A stretch of 64,000 nucleotides of DNA from NCBI GenBank assembly GCA_029856155.1, contig JAHQWL010000023.1:32001-96000 (forward strand), read 5' to 3'. The notes under the pieces were generated by a model, which was not told the origin of the DNA, did no database searches, and saw only the letters and a program-made list of their open reading frames with translations. The first letter of the stretch is position 1; every line of letters begins with the position of its first letter. Of the stretch, positions 43,420-57,444 are shown piece by piece. The translations under genes and the position numbers were made by a program. The stretch is from Promethearchaeia archaeon (GTDB lineage Archaea > Asgardarchaeota > Lokiarchaeia > Sigyniarchaeales > SOKP01).

Positions 43420-43461
43420 ACTTTTTCATAAATTATATAATAATTAATTAACCTTTTTTAT

Positions 43462-43493
43462 TATATAAATATGTTGTCGAGATAGGACGACAA
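43462..43493 (-). promoter_or_regulatory. TATA box plus palindromic operator TTGTC-N10-GACAA
   Basis: Plus strand: TATATAAA 43462-43469, TTGTCG-AGATAGGA-CGACAA 43474-43493. Confidence 0.6.
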
Positions 43494-49279: not shown

Positions 49280-49822
49280 TTATTCTATTTTTTTATATTT
49301 AAAAATAATACCTTCTTCAATCCAACTCCAATGTAACATTGGTCGTCTAAATTCTCCTTCAAATTCAAAACTAGATTTTTTTATCTGTTCTTGGACTTTA
49401 TTTAATTCAATTCCATAAGAACCTATATGAGTAGCATGATAAGATAAAAATCCGGATTTATCTTTTAAAACTCGATGTATTTCATTTAATAATTTGATTC
49501 TATCGTCTTTATCGAGTAAATGATACACATCATACATTAACACAACGTCTATAAAATTGTTCTTCAATGGAATCGATATTTTTTTCGAAGTCTTTATGAT
49601 TTCGATATTCTTAATATTTTGAGACTTAATTTCAATAGATAATTCCTCTAAATGATCTTCATCGTAATCAAGAGCATAAATTTTACCAGTATTTCCTATA
49701 ATTCGCGAAGCAATTATTGAATATACTCCTGTTCCACATCCAAAATCTAAGATTTTTTGTCCACTTTTAATTCCAAATTCTCTAAGTATACTTTCTCCCT
49801 TTGAATTTAACCATTCTTCCAT
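49280..49822 (-). CDS. class I SAM-dependent methyltransferase
   Basis: ILDFGCGTG, HRVLK. Confidence 0.88.
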   Translation of the reverse strand: MEEWLNSKGESILREFGIKSGQKILDFGCGTGVYSIIASRIIGNTGKIYALDYDEDHLEELSIEIKSQNIKNIEIIKTSKKISIPLKNNFIDVVLMYDVYHLLDKDDRIKLLNEIHRVLKDKSGFLSYHATHIGSYGIELNKVQEQIKKSSFEFEGEFRRPMLHWSWIEEGIIFKYKKIE

Positions 49823-49912
49823 GTTTATTTCTAATCTTTATTATTTATTAAAATAAAGGATATGAAAAATTTCTATAAAAAGAAAGAATTGTGAAAAATA
49901 TAAAAATAACCT

Positions 49913-51163
49913 TTAAAGTTTTAAGATAATACTCAATAATATTGGAAATTGTTCTTCAGAACCCCAAACGACATAGATTTTATTTTGAATAGGAACAGCT
50001 ACATGCCTAGCCGCCACAATCCAATCCAACCCAACATTATTTCCAGTCTCGGTTTCTTCTTTAAATTTAAAATACATTGTCATTCCTAAATAATCTTGAA
50101 TTTTTGTATCCTCAATTTTAATATCTTCTAGATCTGGAATCGTAAATTCTTTAATATCAAGATCAGGTTGTATCGGTTCTCTCATTTTTTCTGAAGAAAG
50201 CTGTAATGCTGCTCTGATGATAACTTCTTCCTTTATTTTTTTATTATATTCAAAAATAATGAGACCACAATCCTTTTCTTTTCCTACTATTCCAAGGGAG
50301 TTAAAGTCAAATGATTTTTCGCTATATAATTGAAAATCTTTCTTTATTTCTGAGATATCTATCCATCCATTCTCAAGAGTTTCACCCATTATATATCGAA
50401 AACTCTTTAAAATCTTTAATTCCTCTTCTTTTTGTTGAATTCTTTCATCAAATATGCTTGTTAAGGGTCTTGCTACAAAATATTGTGCACTTTTTGGCAA
50501 TAATGGCAATTTAATTATCCATTCTTTACTAATTAAGCGATCAATAATACGATATATAGTTGTTCTTTTAATAGATAAATCTTCATCTAACTCACCTACT
50601 TTTGCCCCTTCATTCCCCTTTCTTAGCAATGTTAAATATACTTTTGCTTCTTCAATACTCAATCCAAATTTAAGTAATCCAAGTTCTTGCAAATTATTAG
50701 TATCATCAAGAAGTATTCTTGGAGTAGCCCATTTTAATTCTTCTACTTTTCCTAATTGGGTATCTAAATCCATATATGGCTTTTTTGTACTTAATTCACT
50801 TAAAGTTCGAGATGCTTCCATCATTCCAAGTCGCATCAATCCATCAGGAGCAATCTTACAAATAATTTTCCTCTCATCGTCTTTAAACCCTAAAATTCCT
50901 CCTTTTTTAATAGGATCTATCCCTACCAATCTTTCAGGAGTACACTGAATTATTAAATATTTTATATCTGAAATTGTAAGAGAAGTATGTTTCATTGATT
51001 TCCAAACTGAATTAATTTCATTAATATCACCACTAATATTCCAATTCTTTGTTGAATATTCTATTTCGTTTTCTCCTTTAATTATTGCTGCTGATATTGT
51101 TTTCGATTCAGACTTTATTAAATTCTTTAGAGCATGCTTTACTTTTTCCATATGTAGAATCAT
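49913..51163 (-). CDS. profilin-domain / TrmB-HTH fusion protein
   Basis: aa ~5-125 resemble Asgard profilin (AAII..YSTKNWNIS..I...KY.IIQCTPERLV...KGGILG). aa ~160-240 are a TrmB HTH (FGLSIEEAKVYLTLL, IKRTTIYRIIDRLISKEWI). The C-domain is paralogous to ORF 42508-43419. Confidence 0.8.
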   Translation of the reverse strand: MILHMEKVKHALKNLIKSESKTISAAIIKGENEIEYSTKNWNISGDINEINSVWKSMKHTSLTISDIKYLIIQCTPERLVGIDPIKKGGILGFKDDERKIICKIAPDGLMRLGMMEASRTLSELSTKKPYMDLDTQLGKVEELKWATPRILLDDTNNLQELGLLKFGLSIEEAKVYLTLLRKGNEGAKVGELDEDLSIKRTTIYRIIDRLISKEWIIKLPLLPKSAQYFVARPLTSIFDERIQQKEEELKILKSFRYIMGETLENGWIDISEIKKDFQLYSEKSFDFNSLGIVGKEKDCGLIIFEYNKKIKEEVIIRAALQLSSEKMREPIQPDLDIKEFTIPDLEDIKIEDTKIQDYLGMTMYFKFKEETETGNNVGLDWIVAARHVAVPIQNKIYVVWGSEEQFPILLSIILKL

Positions 51164-51199
51164 TATCTCTTTTTATGTATATTAAAAAAAAAATAAAAA

Positions 51200-51403
51200 T
51201 TATTTTTCTCCAAATTTCTTTTTTATTTCATCTAATACTTTATCATAATAGCTTTTTTCTTTAGATTCTTGAATTTTTGTGAAATATTCCGGCATGATTA
51301 GTCTCTTAGATTCATTTTTTATCTCCTCATCTGTCCAAATTATCCCATCATCCAATATGATACAAGGTATACCATCCAAAAGTTTTATTCGTATCATTTT
51401 CAT
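51200..51403 (-). CDS. small hypothetical protein (~67 aa) between actin and the profilin-TrmB gene
   Basis: Start reassigned to ATG 51403 to avoid overlap with actin; MKMIRIKLLDGIPCIILDDG... Confidence 0.5.
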   Translation of the reverse strand: MKMIRIKLLDGIPCIILDDGIIWTDEEIKNESKRLIMPEYFTKIQESKEKSYYDKVLDEIKKKFGEK

Positions 51404-51432
51404 CACTTTTAAATATTTTTTGTTGAAACTGT

Positions 51433-52578
51433 TTAAAAGCATCGATGGATAACTTGGGGTCCCATCTCCTTGTATTCTCTTCGAGTAATCCACATTCTAT
51501 GAAATGTTTTTAAGGAACTTAAGATAGATCCTCCTATCCACACAGAATACATTCTTTCTGGAGGAGCGATTATCTTTACATCTATAGATTCAGCAACCTG
51601 TTCTTTTATTTCTCGAGTTAAACGCTCTTTAATTCCGGGAAACATTGTAGAACCGCCTGAAAGGACAATATTACTATAAAGATCTCTGCGTAAATCTACA
51701 TCACATTCAGATATTGCTCCTACCACTTCATCATCTAGAGGAGCTAATTCTTTACCAATCACAGAAGGATTAAATAAGCATTCTGGAGCCAAGAATCTTT
51801 CAATCCCTATTGTGATAGTTTCACCATCAGGAAGCATGAAATTCTTTGCCATACCAGCTACCTTATTTGAAAGTAAAATCTCTTTTTCAGGATCAATAGC
51901 AACATAGCAAAGCTTTTCTTTTATTTCTCTTACAATCTCTTTCTCAGCTGATGTATAAAAGGAATATCCATTTTGACGTAACAATCTCTGTAAATATGTT
52001 GTAACATCCCTTCCAGCAAGATCAATTCTCTGGATTGCATGACTTAAAGCAAATCCTTCAAATATTGGTACTATATGAGCTACTCCATCACCAATATCGA
52101 TTACACATCCTGTTGTTCGACCAGAAGCGTAAAGTGATAATACTGCTTGAGTTGCTATATAAAGCGCCGGAACATTAAATGTTTCGAACATTATTTCTGC
52201 TAGTTTTTCTCGATTTGATCGAGGATTCAATGGAGCTTCAGTTAATAATATTGGGTACTCAGATGGATCAATTCTTAAATCAGTATAAAATGTATAATGC
52301 CAAATTCTTTCCATTGCTGGCCAATCTTCCACAACTCCATGCTCAATAGGAAATTGTAAATTCATTATTCCTTTTAATTCCATCGCTTCTTCACCAATAT
52401 ACCATTCTCGACTATAATCCTTTACATCGGGCATTATGTTTCCATATTTTGGTTTACCAATCACAGTAGGAAACACTGAACGTGGCTGATCTTCTCCTCC
52501 AAATCCATTTTTTGATATTCCGGTCCCATTATCTATAACAATAGCTCTATTATTTCTAAAATCCCCGTTGACTGAAAT
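51433..52578 (-). CDS. actin (Lokiactin-type); N-terminus extended to a probable ATT start
   Basis: The frame upstream of the called GTG encodes AIVIDNGTGISKNGFGGEDQPRSVFP. Also LLTEAPLNP, DIGDGV, IVLSGGSTMFPG, YSVWIGGSIL, HRCF. Confidence 0.95.
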   Translation of the reverse strand: MSVNGDFRNNRAIVIDNGTGISKNGFGGEDQPRSVFPTVIGKPKYGNIMPDVKDYSREWYIGEEAMELKGIMNLQFPIEHGVVEDWPAMERIWHYTFYTDLRIDPSEYPILLTEAPLNPRSNREKLAEIMFETFNVPALYIATQAVLSLYASGRTTGCVIDIGDGVAHIVPIFEGFALSHAIQRIDLAGRDVTTYLQRLLRQNGYSFYTSAEKEIVREIKEKLCYVAIDPEKEILLSNKVAGMAKNFMLPDGETITIGIERFLAPECLFNPSVIGKELAPLDDEVVGAISECDVDLRRDLYSNIVLSGGSTMFPGIKERLTREIKEQVAESIDVKIIAPPERMYSVWIGGSILSSLKTFHRMWITRREYKEMGPQVIHRCF

Positions 52579-52767
52579 TTTAAAACCACCTCTTTTTTTG
52601 ATTATAAGAACTGAATTTTATTAAAGGAATCAATAATTAAATAGATAGTAGACTATTTTTCTTGGAAGATATTCCCAGAAATGATCTAATGTTGATTATC
52701 CATAGAATTCATATTTGATTCCTAAATTTAATAAAACTTTTTCTTGTTGTAATGATATTTTAACTAG

Positions 52768-52801
52768 TATATAAACTTTGTCACATCATCGTGACAAAGT
52801 T
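52768..52801 (-). promoter_or_regulatory. TATA box plus perfect 11-bp inverted repeat upstream of actin
   Basis: Plus strand: TATATAAA 52768-52775; AACTTTGTCAC-ATCATC-GTGACAAAGTT 52774-52801. Confidence 0.7.
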
Positions 52802-52912
52802 GTGCCATTAATATAACAATTTAAAAAAAAATATTTGAAAATTAGTATTATTTGAATTGACGGCTCTATATACCTTATAATGTTTATAGGAATAATTAAA
52901 TTTAAATAAAAA

Positions 52913-53977
52913 CTATTTTTTTAGCAGATTTATCAACTTTTTTACTATTAGGTCCCCCATTTCTCTTGTTGTTAGTGTCTTAAAAGTTTTATTCTCAATA
53001 TCTATGGTTCTTCCTTCGTTAAGAGCCTCTTCCACAGATTTTTCAATTAAATTTCCAATTTCTGGAGAATTAAATGATTCCTGCATCATTAATTTTACAC
53101 TTAAAATAGTACCTATTGGATTTGCAATATTTTTACCAGCAATATCAGGAGCCGAACCATGTATAGGTTCATACATAGACACATTTCCTGGATTTATATT
53201 TCCACTAGCGGCCATTCCTAAACTACCAATAAGAAAGGCGCCTTCATCACTAGTAATATCACCGAACATATTGCCTGTAACTACAGTTTCGTAAGAATAG
53301 GGAGCACGAATTAGCCATTGACAAAAAGCATCGATATAGACATCCTCTTTCTCGATATCAGGATAATCATTTCCAATTCTATGAAAGATCGAGCGCCAAA
53401 ATTGACTTGCTTTTATAACATTTGCTTTATCTACAGATGTTATTTTCTTATGGCCATTTTTCTTCGCAAATTCATAAGCATATCGTATAATTCGTTCACA
53501 CCCCTTTTTAGTATAACGCATTACACTTTCTGCAATATCTTCTGATATTTCTCCTATTCCTTTATATATTCCTTCTGTATTTTCTCTAATAATGGTGAAA
53601 TCAATACCTTTTCCTATAAATTCTTCTTTAAGTGGGCATCTATCACGTATATGATCATATAACTTAATTGGTCTTATATTTACATATAGATCTAAATCCT
53701 GTCTTATCTTTAAGATTGCAGATTCAACAACTCCGGGGGGTAAATCAGGAAGTCCAATAGCACCAAATAATAGAGAATCAGAATTTTTAATAATCTCAAA
53801 TGTCTTCTTAGGAAGACTTTCACCACATTTTTTCCATACATTCCCTCCCGCGGGGGCATTTTTAAATTCAAAATCAAAATCAGTATACTCAGAAATTGTC
53901 TTTAGAATCTTTATCCCTTCTTCTACTACTTCTAATCCACATCCATCACCATGAGTGATGGCTATTTTTTTTACCAT
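52913..53977 (-). CDS. leuB: 3-isopropylmalate dehydrogenase
   Basis: GDGCGLEV, IRENTEG, VDKANV, NMFGDITSD, YEPIHGSAPDIAGK. Confidence 0.9.
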   Translation of the reverse strand: MVKKIAITHGDGCGLEVVEEGIKILKTISEYTDFDFEFKNAPAGGNVWKKCGESLPKKTFEIIKNSDSLLFGAIGLPDLPPGVVESAILKIRQDLDLYVNIRPIKLYDHIRDRCPLKEEFIGKGIDFTIIRENTEGIYKGIGEISEDIAESVMRYTKKGCERIIRYAYEFAKKNGHKKITSVDKANVIKASQFWRSIFHRIGNDYPDIEKEDVYIDAFCQWLIRAPYSYETVVTGNMFGDITSDEGAFLIGSLGMAASGNINPGNVSMYEPIHGSAPDIAGKNIANPIGTILSVKLMMQESFNSPEIGNLIEKSVEEALNEGRTIDIENKTFKTLTTREMGDLIVKKLINLLKK

Positions 53978-54495
53978 TATGATTCCTCTTCTGAATTAGC
54001 AATTTGTTCTTTGGCAAAATTTACGAGCCCTTGAAGTTTAATTATTTTCTGTAAAAAGGCTGGAAACTCACTAAAAGAATAAGATTGGTTAGAAGTTATA
54101 TTTCTTATTGATCCTTTTCCAAAATCAATATCTAACAGATCTCCACTATTAAAAGCATTAGTATCAGGAAACTGAAGAATTGGAAGTCCGATATTAATTG
54201 CATTTCTGAAAAATATTCGTGCAAAACTGGGAGCTATAATTAATTCTATTCCCGAAGCTTTTAATGCGATTGGAGCTTGTTCTCGGCTAGATCCACAACC
54301 GAAATTTGAACCTGAGACGAGAATCGTTGCTTGAAGATCATTTTTATTCTGATGAAACTCAGGATCTAAATCTTCCATACAATGTTTTGCTAAAAATTGA
54401 GGATCTGTATCTACTAAGTATCGAGCAGGAATTATAAAATCGGTATTAATATTTTCTTGAGGATATTTAATTACTTTTCCTTTTATTTTTTTCAC
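53977..54495 (-). CDS. leuD: 3-isopropylmalate dehydratase small subunit
   Basis: [40 protein letters not shown]. Confidence 0.92.
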
Positions 54496-54512
54496 CTTTT
54501 AAATTGAATTTT

Positions 54513-55787
54513 TTATATACTTTCTGGAGATGTAATAAAACCTTTTAAAGCAGAAGATGCAGCAATTACAGGGTTTGATAAATAAACTTCACTTTCCTTA
54601 TGCCCCATCCTTCCCATAAAATTTCTATTTGTCGTTGATATCGCTCTTTCACCAGGAGCAAGGATTCCCATATGTCCTCCTAAACATGGACCACAAGTGG
54701 GTGGAGATACAATCGCTCCCGCTTTAAGAAAAATTTCGATTAATCCTTCTTTAAGAGCATGAAATTGAATATTAGGAGTGCCTGGAATGATAATACATCT
54801 CACACTAGGGTGGATCTTGTTATTTTTCATTATTTTTGCCGCTATCCGTAAATCCTCCAATCGTCCGTTAGTGCAAGAACCAATTACAGCTTGATCAATT
54901 TCAAGATGTAAATTATGTACTTCAGATATAGGTTTTGTATTGCTTGGTGAGTGCGGAAGAGCTATTTGAGGTTCAATTTTAGAACAATCGATCTCAATGC
55001 TGTTATGATAATTCGCATTATGATCATTTTCATAAGTTTTATATTTCGAAATTCCTACATTTTTAAGATATTGTTTTGTAATTTTATCTGGAAAAATGAA
55101 CCCTGTTTTTGCCCCTGCTTCGATAGCCATATTACACATAGTAAAACGGTTTGCCATAGATAAGTTATCAATAATTTCTCCTGTAAACTCCATAACTTTA
55201 TACGTTGCCCCATCAACACCAATTTGACCAATTGTATATAAAATTAAATCTTTTCCTGAAACCCATTTATTCAACTGACCTGAATATATGAATCTTGTGG
55301 TTTTAGGTACTTGAAGCCAACATTTTCCGAGAACCATAGTCACACCTAAATCAGTTGAGCCAACACCAGTAGAGAACGCTCCTAATGCACCATATGTACA
55401 AGTATGAGAATCAGCACCAATAATTAATTCACTCGGAGATACTAGACCTTGTTCAGGAATAAGACAATGTTCAATTCCTACTTTTCCTACCTCAAAATAG
55501 TGTTGAATATGATACTTATTTGCAAAATCTCTCAAAATTTTACACTGTATTGCCGAAGCAATATCTTTATTTGGTGTAAAATGATCTGGTGTCAATATTA
55601 TCTTACTCGGATCAAAAACACTTCTTTCAGTTCCTTCAATAATTTTTTCGAAAACTTCTATAGCTTTTGGTGCAGTTATATCATTACCCAAACATTTATC
55701 AATATTTACTAAAACAAAATCTCCAGCAGAAAGATCCTTTTGATCGCAATGATCTCTTAAGATTTTTTCACTAATTGTTAAAACCAT
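54513..55787 (-). CDS. leuC: 3-isopropylmalate dehydratase large subunit
   Basis: GADSHTCTYGA, IGSCTNGR, CGPCLG, TNRNF.GRMG. Confidence 0.92.
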   Translation of the reverse strand: MVLTISEKILRDHCDQKDLSAGDFVLVNIDKCLGNDITAPKAIEVFEKIIEGTERSVFDPSKIILTPDHFTPNKDIASAIQCKILRDFANKYHIQHYFEVGKVGIEHCLIPEQGLVSPSELIIGADSHTCTYGALGAFSTGVGSTDLGVTMVLGKCWLQVPKTTRFIYSGQLNKWVSGKDLILYTIGQIGVDGATYKVMEFTGEIIDNLSMANRFTMCNMAIEAGAKTGFIFPDKITKQYLKNVGISKYKTYENDHNANYHNSIEIDCSKIEPQIALPHSPSNTKPISEVHNLHLEIDQAVIGSCTNGRLEDLRIAAKIMKNNKIHPSVRCIIIPGTPNIQFHALKEGLIEIFLKAGAIVSPPTCGPCLGGHMGILAPGERAISTTNRNFMGRMGHKESEVYLSNPVIAASSALKGFITSPESI

Positions 55788-55821
55788 AATTCTTAAAATC
55801 TCTATTTTTTATTGAAATTAA

Positions 55822-57444
55822 TTATTTTAATGATAGGCTTTTTTTCTTAACAATTAGATTTAGTCCTTTTATCAGAGATAAAACAGAACACAGAACAATA
55901 TCTTCATGAATCGCACTAGCTTTAACTACCATATTACTTTCAACATCCATGATTTCAATGGTAACATGCCCTAATGCTTCAGTTCCACCAGTAATAGCAT
56001 CAATTTGAAAATTTAAAAGTACAATCTTACTCATCGGTTTAAAGCATTTAACAATTGCTTTACAAGAAGCATCTACAGGACCTACTCCCGTTGCAGATGC
56101 TACTTTTTTTATTATATCTCCATTATTTTTGATATTTAATCGAACTGTTGATGTAGGTGTAACAGATCCAGTTAAAACAGTTAACTCCTCAAGCGTAACA
56201 TATTGTTCTTCTTTTGGTATTTCACCCAAAACATCTTTTACAATGGCTAAAAAATCCTCTTCAGAAACTTCATGCCCTTTATCACCAAGACTCTTTACAT
56301 GTTCCATTATTTTCGTAAATTGTTCTTCATTAGGTTTAATTCCTAAGTCATTAATTTTAGCCCTAAGAGCATGACCACCTGTATGTTTTCCAAGTTTTAT
56401 TGATTGCTTGATAATTGCTTCCACATTGTCAGTACGGTGAATTCCTATTAATTCTGGTGTAATGGGTTCATAAGTTCGTGCATGTTGAATCATCGCATGA
56501 GCATGAATACCTGCTTCATGAGCAAATGCATTCTGACCTATAAGGGGTTGTAATCGTCCAATTCTAACTTTTCCACCACAATAACTTTCTACTAATTTAG
56601 CTGTAGGAAATATTTTTGATGTTATAATATTCATAGGTATTTGGTATAAAGCATAAAGAGACATACATGTTTCTTCAAAAGATGCATTTCCTGCTCGTTC
56701 ACCCAAGCCCAAAATTGTTGTTTGAGCTTCAGAAGCACCATTTTCGAACCCAGCAATAGTATTTGCAACAGCAAGACCAAAATCATTATGACAATGGACT
56801 GCAATACGAATATTATTAGGTAAAGTTTCATAATTCTTCCGTATAATATATCCAAAAGCTACTGGAGAGATAGTACCTACTGTGTCAGGTATATTAATTC
56901 GTGTGGCTCCACTTTCAACGGCAGTTAGGTTAGCTTTAATTAAAAAGTCTAGATCTGATCTAGTTGCATCCTCAGCTGAAAATAATACTGTAGAATAATG
57001 CTCTTTAGCATAAGAGACGGTTTCTCTTATTCTTTCTATGACTTCATCTTTAGTTAATTGAAGTTTTTCTCTCATATGCAGTTCTGAAGTGGCACAAAAT
57101 AGATGTATACTATCCATATCTGCCTCTATAACTCTATCTATATCAGGTTTCGCTGTTCTAGCTAAACCCATCACTTCAGAATCTAAACCCATTTTTGCAA
57201 TATCTCTACAAGCTTCAAAATCACCCTGAGATGTTATAGGAAAACCCGCTTCTATAATATCGATTCCCAACTCATTAAGAGCTTGAGCAATAGATAGCTT
57301 TTCTTTATGAGTAAAACTTATACCTGGAGTTTGTTCCCCATCACGGAGCGTTGTATCAAAAAAATATGCTCTATCAGGGAGGATAAGTGCTCCTCTAATT
57401 TTTTCCATCATTTCGGAAACAGCAATATCGTTTTTACTTACCAT
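55822..57444 (-). CDS. leuA: 2-isopropylmalate synthase
   Basis: DTTLRDGEQ, HCHNDFGLAVAN, GERAGNA, AFAHEAGIH, regulatory domain G.GPVDA. Confidence 0.88.
   Translation of the reverse strand: MVSKNDIAVSEMMEKIRGALILPDRAYFFDTTLRDGEQTPGISFTHKEKLSIAQALNELGIDIIEAGFPITSQGDFEACRDIAKMGLDSEVMGLARTAKPDIDRVIEADMDSIHLFCATSELHMREKLQLTKDEVIERIRETVSYAKEHYSTVLFSAEDATRSDLDFLIKANLTAVESGATRINIPDTVGTISPVAFGYIIRKNYETLPNNIRIAVHCHNDFGLAVANTIAGFENGASEAQTTILGLGERAGNASFEETCMSLYALYQIPMNIITSKIFPTAKLVESYCGGKVRIGRLQPLIGQNAFAHEAGIHAHAMIQHARTYEPITPELIGIHRTDNVEAIIKQSIKLGKHTGGHALRAKINDLGIKPNEEQFTKIMEHVKSLGDKGHEVSEEDFLAIVKDVLGEIPKEEQYVTLEELTVLTGSVTPTSTVRLNIKNNGDIIKKVASATGVGPVDASCKAIVKCFKPMSKIVLLNFQIDAITGGTEALGHVTIEIMDVESNMVVKASAIHEDIVLCSVLSLIKGLNLIVKKKSLSLK

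Follow-up and report, generated by a model that had tools for sequence, protein, structure and literature searches.

The 64,000-nt stretch of contig JAHQWL010000023.1 analysed here (the window), from a member of the Lokiarchaeial family SOKP01, carries on its minus strand three co-oriented genes: an actin gene, a small open reading frame (ORF; in its 67-aa form starting at position 51403) and a 416-aa ORF at 49913..51163, whose product joins an N-terminal profilin domain to a TrmB-type DNA-binding body. The initial annotation of this DNA had pointed to the shared orientation and the short gaps, which were measured at 29 nt (51404-51432) between the actin gene and the small ORF, and 36 nt (51164-51199) between the small ORF and the fusion gene. 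This part of the window is a self-contained chromosomal cassette, present in a subset of one Lokiarchaeial family, and consists in order of a palindrome abutting a TATA box, an accessory lokiactin gene, an optional 67-aa ORF, an oligo-T tract and the profilin::TrmB fusion gene (Table 1).

The assignment of the first ~125 residues of the 416-aa protein to the Asgard profilins, previously made on the basis of sequence patterns, was borne out. All of these patterns are present in the translation: NWNIS at aa 40-44, KYLIIQCTPERLV at aa 68-80, and KGGILG at aa 87-92. In a phmmer search against the PDB, aa 1-131 matched Loki profilin-2 (5zzb, E 1.5e-8), Loki profilin-1 (5yed/5yee, E 2.6e-8), Odin profilin (5zza, E 4.3e-7), and Thor profilin (7pbh, E 4e-5), and the only significant sequence matches were to profilins crystallised on actin. 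An AlphaFold2 (AF2) model of the fusion protein, built on 60 homologues, had a mean predicted local distance difference test (pLDDT) score of 71.6, with block means of 71-88 in the N-domain, which has the topology of a profilin: a helix at residues 5-17, seven strands, and a helix at residues 110-123. A Foldseek search with this model likewise found a profilin fold (E 3e-8), the top 27 matches being all profilins, those of Loki and Odin first (E 3e-8 to 8e-8, TM 0.69-0.78) and eukaryotic ones after them. Structural alignment with VIA yielded Z 16.1 and a root-mean-square deviation (rmsd) of 2.8 over 124 residues for Loki profilin-2, and Z 15.8 for yeast profilin. Altogether, sequence comparison and the predicted structure confirm the N-domain as a true profilin homologue.

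The linker that follows is predicted to be disordered, with pLDDT below 50 at aa 135-153, although few stretches of the family are better conserved; its invariant or near-invariant columns, together with the end of the profilin domain, are K127, P129, Y130, L137, G138, K139, K144, W145, T147, P148, and L151. Beyond it, the TrmB winged helix-turn-helix (wHTH) claimed for this protein is recognised by PF01978 at aa 163-219 (41.6 bits against a cut-off of 25.6, E 1.1e-10), and aa 155-259 align with TrmBL2 (5bqt) with a VIA Z of 12.1 and an rmsd of 2.8. The recognition helix is invariant across the family of fusion proteins. Over the whole body, Foldseek aligned the fusion with TrmBL2 (5bpd, E 3e-4, ~305 columns), and VIA gave Z 12.6 for aa 154-404, but with an rmsd of 12.4 over 165 residues, so that the arrangement of the domains appears to differ from that of TrmBL2; model confidence is low at aa 251-296. 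No Pfam match to the sugar-binding C-domain was obtained in the fusion protein.

A second TrmB protein encoded in the window shares the wHTH, the C-terminal domain and the C-domain motifs quoted in the initial annotation, and it has no counterpart of the first ~160 residues of the fusion. The existence of this profilin-less paralogue agrees with the earlier description, and because of it the profilin domain can be regarded as a modular addition to a TrmB-type regulator.

More than 149 full-length homologues of the fusion, 400-474 aa long and down to 47% identical, were found in Asgard metagenome-assembled genomes, under generic database names such as 'helix-turn-helix domain-containing protein'. 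Species-representative genomes were scanned as well, which gave 48 related loci; 43 have a lokiactin-type gene immediately upstream and in the same orientation, and the remaining five are either truncated by contig ends or matched only in part. The linkage holds down to 37% identity of the fusion, an insertion variant of 517 aa (P0161) has the same arrangement with the actin gene upstream, and among the 43 loci the N-terminal profilin::TrmB architecture was never seen away from an actin gene. The association with actin thus recurs in other genomes; it is near-universal across the family and goes far past what chance would produce. Among 400 genomes of the phylum, full-length matches to the fusion were confined to the window's own GTDB family, where ~45 of the 134 genomes had one; no match was found in two single-contig genomes (4.4 and 6.0 Mb) of a sister family.

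The actin at this locus is not the main actin of the cell, as the description 'actin locus' had implied, but an accessory, faster-evolving lokiactin paralogue, as judged from genome content and phylogeny. Complete or near-complete genomes without the fusion mostly have one lokiactin, ~85% identical to the window actin, while those with the fusion mostly have two, namely a near-invariant core copy and the fusion-linked copy, the latter being restricted to about one third of the genomes of the family. In the genome to which the window belongs, the core lokiactin (C4:51355-52482) has an ATG start and neither the palindrome upstream nor a regulator beside it. On a maximum-likelihood tree obtained by a quick search only, and with one divergent actin (L049) left out of the alignments and the tree, 41 linked actins were split from 17 core actins by a single branch with a Shimodaira–Hasegawa-like approximate likelihood ratio (SH-aLRT) value of 99. 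The core lokiactins are almost identical to one another, and the linked actins evolve faster.

Substitutions that define the linked clade relative to the core actins (E46G, T50P, E53K, T56S, Q67E, L72M, V78I, I83V, and T87P) are clustered at residues 46-87 of the window actin (nt ~52318-52443), which correspond, by the offset from the DNGTG loop, to the DNase I-binding loop (D-loop) and subdomain 2. The barbed-end region at the C-terminus is conserved. The sequences hint that the filament contacts of the accessory actin are altered.

The stretch upstream of the accessory actin gene that the initial annotation had named for an electrophoretic mobility shift assay contains a perfect 10-6-10 palindrome that is kept across genomes and that overlaps, by its last base, a TATA box, so that its promoter-proximal half-site covers the position of the transcription factor B recognition element (BRE). 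The strict core of this palindrome, TTGTCAC-N6-GTGACAA, is found once in the 4.1-Mb genome, and a tolerance of two mismatches adds no more than two unrelated sites, both within genes. The strict motif is likewise present once per genome, at the cassette, in four related whole genomes. If up to two mismatches are allowed, 35 of 45 related loci have the site ahead of the linked actin gene, and most of the loci below this threshold (five more) have degenerate forms with a GTGACA half-site beside the TATA box. Across 433 kb of sequence from related loci, hits of this kind were confined to actin promoters and two promoters of the paralogue. The consensus reads tTGTCaC-N6-GTGACAA-NN-TTTAAATA: the operator is separated from the TATA-like box by 2 nt at 22 of 36 sites, and nine others have an extra GTGACAA half-site by the TATA box.

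The core TTGTC-N10-GACAA also marks the promoter of the profilin-less paralogue, where this palindrome is directly followed by a TATA box; apart from the cassette, the genome has the loose motif nowhere else. Every one of the 22 orthologues with 44% identity or more to the paralogue has TTGTC-N10-GACAA, with no more than one mismatch, at a distance of 70-81 nt ahead of its own start and usually next to a TATA-like box, and at the promoters of seven more distant TrmB relatives this motif was not found. Since it recurs at all 22 promoters, the motif is tied to this TrmB subfamily. The recognition helices of the fusion and the paralogue have RTTIY.I..RL in common and differ at two flanking positions, K and R versus G/A; these differences parallel a shared TTGTC/GACAA core combined with subfamily-specific inner operator bases. 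The loose motif was also tried as a genome-wide regulon marker and rejected, because 1-5 occurrences per genome against 0-4 for the reversed control amount to chance; the information lies solely in the strict 7+7 form and in the promoter context.

On this comparative evidence, the fusion protein is probably the specific regulator of the cassette promoter. The earlier proposal that it regulates the actin gene gains support from the operator, with the correction that the target is the accessory and not the core actin.

Table 1. Features of the cassette and of the paralogous regulator gene (positions in the window; aa numbering of the fusion protein unless stated otherwise)
Feature	Position	Strand	Remarks
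TrmB paralogue without profilin domain, 303 aa	42508..43419	-	34% identity to fusion aa 163-414, E 2e-40
TATA box of paralogue promoter	43461-43469		Directly after palindrome 43474..43493
Paralogue promoter palindrome TTGTC-N10-GACAA	43474..43493	.	Only other loose-motif occurrence in genome
C-terminal alpha/beta domain, aa 260-416 and stop	49913..50386	-	TrmBL2 C-domain-like; common to paralogue
TrmB wHTH and long dimerisation helix, aa 154-259	50387..50704	-	PF01978; recognition helix KRTTIYRI
Linker, aa 129-153	50705..50779	-	PYM..LGK..LKWATPRILL; predicted disordered, highly conserved
Profilin domain, aa 1-128	50780..51163	-	phmmer, AF2, Foldseek, VIA
Oligo-T tract, T5-A-T10	51184..51199	-	Between small ORF and fusion gene; archaeal terminator-type signal
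Small conserved protein, 67 aa	51200..51403	-	Homologues at same position in ~20 loci, distant ones included
Accessory lokiactin paralogue, 381 aa	51433..52578	-	Pfam Actin 395.9 bits; probable ATT start 52578-52576
TATA box TTTATATA	52768..52775	-	Palindrome's last base overlaps box; promoter-proximal half-site over BRE position
Perfect 10-6-10 palindrome ACTTTGTCAC-N6-GTGACAAAGT, candidate operator	52775..52800	.	Core TTGTCAC-N6-GTGACAA at 52778-52797

The expression signals of the cassette have features of their own. The actin ORF covers 51433..52476 when read from a GTG codon, and its frame is open to 52617, but between the upstream stop and the DNGTG phosphate loop no ATG, GTG or TTG is present. 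A GAGGTG Shine-Dalgarno sequence at 52592-52587 of the minus strand lies 8 nt upstream of an ATT codon, and the orthologous start position is occupied across loci by ATT, TTG or ATG ('[I/L/M]SVNGDF'). About 19 related loci have ATT where the others have TTG or ATG, and these too lack a canonical actin start before the phosphate-binding loop. Translation of the accessory actin may, to go by these codons, be limited by a weak ATT start. Across loci L007-L051, the distance from operator and TATA box to the actin start falls into two classes, ~85 nt and ~220 nt, and the transcripts would therefore have short and long leaders. The window belongs to the long class (leader 52579-52767), in whose additional ~135 nt nothing was recognised and no Rfam match was obtained. 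A permissive Rfam scan of 49800-52950 gave zero matches, and a scan for bacterial-type promoters and terminators, which is not applicable to archaeal promoters, returned counts at the level of shuffled sequence.

Between the actin gene or small ORF and the fusion gene, an oligo-T tract, mostly of 8-14 T, is present in 38 of 43 loci, compared with a background of 0.33 runs of T8 or longer per kb. The run usually lies 30-60 nt ahead of the fusion start and is usually followed by a Shine-Dalgarno-like sequence. Oligo-T is a terminator-type signal in archaea, and its conservation at this position makes simple co-transcription of actin and fusion doubtful. With such a tract ahead of its gene, the fusion is probably made at a lower level than actin, via read-through or a weak promoter of its own. 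The small 67-aa protein has the motif RIK.IDGIPCI.L, modelled as a beta-hairpin and followed by a long C-terminal helix (AF2, pLDDT 75). It had no Pfam, NCBIfam or usable Atlas match and no Foldseek match in the PDB at E up to 0.001, and its ORF is missing from cassettes in which the gap is only 40-90 nt.

The contigs that carry the cassette are chromosomal and long, reaching 1.28 Mb, and in 18 loci a UvrA-like gene is the neighbour of the cassette. A mobile-element origin was considered and is not supported, the neighbours being partly syntenic, including the UvrA-like gene. In the window, leuB, leuD, leuC and a 540-aa ORF, probably leuA, separate the cassette from the UvrA-like gene (52913-57444); most other loci lack the leu genes and have UvrA nearer to the cassette. 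Three genomes that lack the full gene retain short remnants of the fusion C-terminus (G224:C4:86022-86372, G199:C1:80511-80819, and G248:C132:20995-21321), with in-frame stops in G224 and G199 and with the profilin-less paralogue surviving nearby in G224 and G248; these sequences suggest decay of the cassette. Another genome (G240) has two fusions (C47:14263-15498 and C16:242-1525), each by its own actin gene, which together with the core copy makes three lokiactins. The most divergent linked actin, with 61% identity (L049:1673-2719), contains stops within its tblastn coordinates and may hold indels or frameshifts.

Profilin domains also occur in other contexts in these archaea. Besides the regulator, the genome of the window encodes two canonical profilins (136 aa, L005, and 126 aa, L006), two with a C-terminal extension, and one fusion with an LCM methyltransferase, six profilin-domain proteins in all. 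The methyltransferase fusion (L002:1447-2760 on C2, 437 aa) combines a profilin-like N-domain, 45% identical to that of the regulator, with a leucine carboxyl methyltransferase (LCM) domain (PF04072, E 2e-31); here, too, a PYL..LGK tail follows the profilin part. The extended forms (L003:1480-2115 on C34 and L004:1150-1845 on C21; ~205-230 aa) consist of profilin, a low-complexity linker and a conserved helical C-terminal extension; they are present in nearly all genomes of the family, and they resemble Odin profilin (E 4e-12) more closely than either Loki profilin-1 or -2. Only 175 proteins among 1.84 billion representatives matched a profile of the fusion-type domain, in many architectures: C-terminal to Ras-family GTPases (P0149, P0162, P0202, and P0206), in leucine-rich repeat (LRR) proteins (P0252, P0254, P0257, and P0211), at the C-terminus of multi-wHTH proteins (P0225, P0247, and P0261), and in a long coiled-coil protein (P0249). 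At the two loci of such multi-wHTH proteins that were checked, no actin neighbour was seen. The profilin-like module could be a general actin-targeting device or else a general interaction or sensor module.

Taking the locus as a whole, we infer that the fusion binds the operator, that its N-domain binds actin, and that the two activities are coupled. The regulator would dimerise via the TrmB helix, and the dimer would bind TTGTCAC-N6-GTGACAA over the BRE position and thereby control transcription of the accessory actin gene. It could also set its own level, through read-through of the oligo-T tract or its own weak promoter. The profilin head would bind monomeric actin, core or accessory, and the free actin pool would set the activity of the regulator. 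As a complete scheme, this actin-sensing one-component feedback mechanism is put forward tentatively. Its most specific form, in which globular, monomeric actin (G-actin) is the ligand of a prokaryotic one-component transcription factor and the profilin head switches TrmB at the single operator of an actin with a variant D-loop, is rather doubtful. The sign of regulation could be either: a site over the BRE position fits repression, but activation from sites ahead of the TATA box is likewise known for proteins of the TrmB family. In the literature searched, no description of a profilin::TrmB fusion or of the neighbourhood of lokiactin genes was found.

Several findings weigh against actin sensing by the fusion. 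The Pfam Profilin model (PF00235) gives its N-domain 15.7 bits, below the cut-off of 25; a canonical Loki-type profilin of the same genome scores just 25.0, so the model is weak for Asgard sequences. The fold of the N-domain is also close to Roadblock/LC7, a GTPase-regulatory module, and the domain subfamily is carried by GTPases, LRR proteins, coiled coils, an LCM methyltransferase and other wHTH proteins not adjacent to actin. No part of the protein evolves faster than the N-domain, whose mean distance is 1.06 compared to 0.65 for the rest and 0.20 for actin. To these are added two points on the side of the promoter: the conserved oligo-T tract ahead of the fusion gene, and the paralogue, which, where present, could itself occupy the actin operator.

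A first alternative is that the fusion is a dedicated regulator of the cassette whose profilin-like domain reads no actin, and instead responds to a small GTPase, the 67-aa protein or a lipid, or serves oligomerisation; the link with actin would then exist solely at the level of the target gene. We consider this alternative a real possibility, although not the expected outcome. Its attraction lies in the occurrence of the domain subfamily on Ras-family GTPases, LRR proteins and multi-wHTH proteins away from actin, in the alignment of the N-domain with the Roadblock2 protein of an Asgard archaeon (9jq8; VIA Z 12.4, 104 residues), and in the divergence of the domain, whose most conserved motif, GF[KR]D..R (aa 92-98), departs from canonical Loki and Odin profilins. 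The Roadblock alignment, however, ranks below those of all Asgard and fungal profilins, which exceed it by ~3.5 Z units and 20 aligned residues, and the sole Roadblock-type sequence match, SLM4, has E 0.05, whereas the significant matches are all to actin-cocrystallised profilins. The constant presence of an actin gene at the 43 loci with profilin::TrmB also argues against a non-actin ligand. In a mirror-tree comparison, in which kinship inflates the figures, linked-actin distances tracked the N-domain more than the C-part: the partial correlation of actin with the N-domain given the C-part was 0.46, versus 0.22 for the converse, and this lends weak support to actin sensing. Because the domain subfamily is found on other proteins, actin is a likely but not the sole conceivable ligand of the N-domain.

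The palindrome could, secondly, be the binding site of a different factor, whether the paralogue or some unrelated protein, with the fusion active elsewhere, for instance as a nucleoid protein like TrmBL2, and its adjacency to actin reflecting co-expression or shared history. The window's own genome does encode both the paralogue and the fusion, with similar recognition helices, and the oligo-T tract suggests separate transcription of the fusion gene. In four genomes (G216, G222, G210, and G257), however, no subfamily member other than the fusion was found, which was itself the sole match to the paralogue; each genome has a single strict operator, with the loose motif otherwise at chance level, leaving no other candidate targets visible; and the invariant recognition helix and the invariant operator co-vary by subfamily. 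Binding by another factor is thus unlikely.

A partition or tethering system of the ParMRC type, in which the fusion would be a ParR-like adaptor connecting a parC-like site to actin monomers or barbed ends and moving or anchoring DNA, with autoregulation as a side effect, is very improbable: the order of cis site, actin-family ATPase and DNA-binding protein does mirror parC-parM-parR, the body does resemble TrmBL2, a chromatin protein, and the accessory actin does differ from the core mainly in D-loop and subdomain 2, a filament contact, but each locus has one palindrome or, in nine cases, three half-sites and no iteron array, the site overlaps BRE/TATA like a classical operator, the chromosomal cassette has partly conserved neighbours (the UvrA-like gene), and the profilin-less paralogue has the same site at its own promoter, as is typical of autoregulated transcription factors.

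We know of nothing reported on the regulation of the actin genes of these archaea. In the cassette a candidate regulator can be named, and a 26-bp DNA site and a target gene are defined along with it; the long-standing question of whether a coupling of cytoskeletal state to gene expression predated eukaryotes thereby becomes testable. The data also indicate that many Lokiarchaeia have two distinct lokiactins, and that the profilin fold serves as a modular domain in archaeal signalling proteins. If actin sensing by the fusion is true, archaeal relatives of eukaryotes would possess an isoform switch controlled by the actin pool, predating and paralleling MRTF-SRF logic, and the profilin-like module on GTPases, LRR proteins and the methyltransferase would mark an actin-targeted signalling toolkit.

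Among known proteins, the N-domain is homologous by sequence and fold to the stand-alone Asgard profilins (5yed/5yee, 5zzb, 5zza, 7pbh, and 6yrr, representing Loki-1 and -2, Odin, Thor and Heimdall). It aligns with the Loki and Odin structures with VIA Z values of 15.4-16.1 and shares with them the arrangement of a helix, a seven-strand sheet and a helix, as well as the NW and KY..ER motifs; like Odin profilin, it is without the 'Loki loop'. Unlike the stand-alone forms, it constitutes the first 128 residues of a 416-aa protein with a DNA-binding domain, and the GF[KR]D..R hairpin and the PYM..LGK tail are conserved features of its own. In the excerpted text of a 2021 survey of 256 Asgard profilins (PMC8410842), only N-terminal extensions are discussed.

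The remainder of the protein resembles TrmB, TrmBL1 and TrmBL2 of Thermococcales in its wHTH (PF01978) and appears to share with them a long dimerisation helix and a C-terminal alpha/beta domain. The palindrome beside BRE/TATA is comparable to the Thermococcales glycolytic motif (TGM) of TrmBL1, which lies next to the BRE/TATA region. The differences from these regulators are the extra N-terminal profilin domain, the lack of a match to a sugar-binding C-domain, and an apparent regulon that consists of a single actin-gene promoter and is not concerned with sugar metabolism.

Type II partition systems are organised as parC-parM-parR, and profilin uses the barbed-end groove of actin, the same one that ParR peptides use on ParM. 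The cassette has in common with ParMRC a cis site at the promoter, an actin-family gene and then a gene for a DNA-binding protein that would be able to touch actin, and ParR, too, autoregulates. In contrast, the site is a single palindrome, where ParMRC has a centromere of multiple repeats; the locus is chromosomal rather than carried by a plasmid or some other mobile replicon; the actin shares 85% identity with the lokiactin of the cytoskeleton; and the DNA-binding domain is a TrmB wHTH instead of a ribbon-helix-helix.

The closest parallel in logic would be the control of actin genes by G-actin through MRTF-SRF in animals, which the initial annotation had also invoked. The RPEL family was absent from the general Pfam matches, in which no test aimed at RPEL was made. 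If the actin-sensing model holds, the two systems are alike in that a regulator with a module binding actin monomers controls an actin gene, with feedback from the monomer pool. They are not homologous: MRTF relies on RPEL motifs and nuclear shuttling and acts via SRF, whereas in the cassette profilin is fused to the DNA-binding protein itself, and the comparison is one of functional analogy only.

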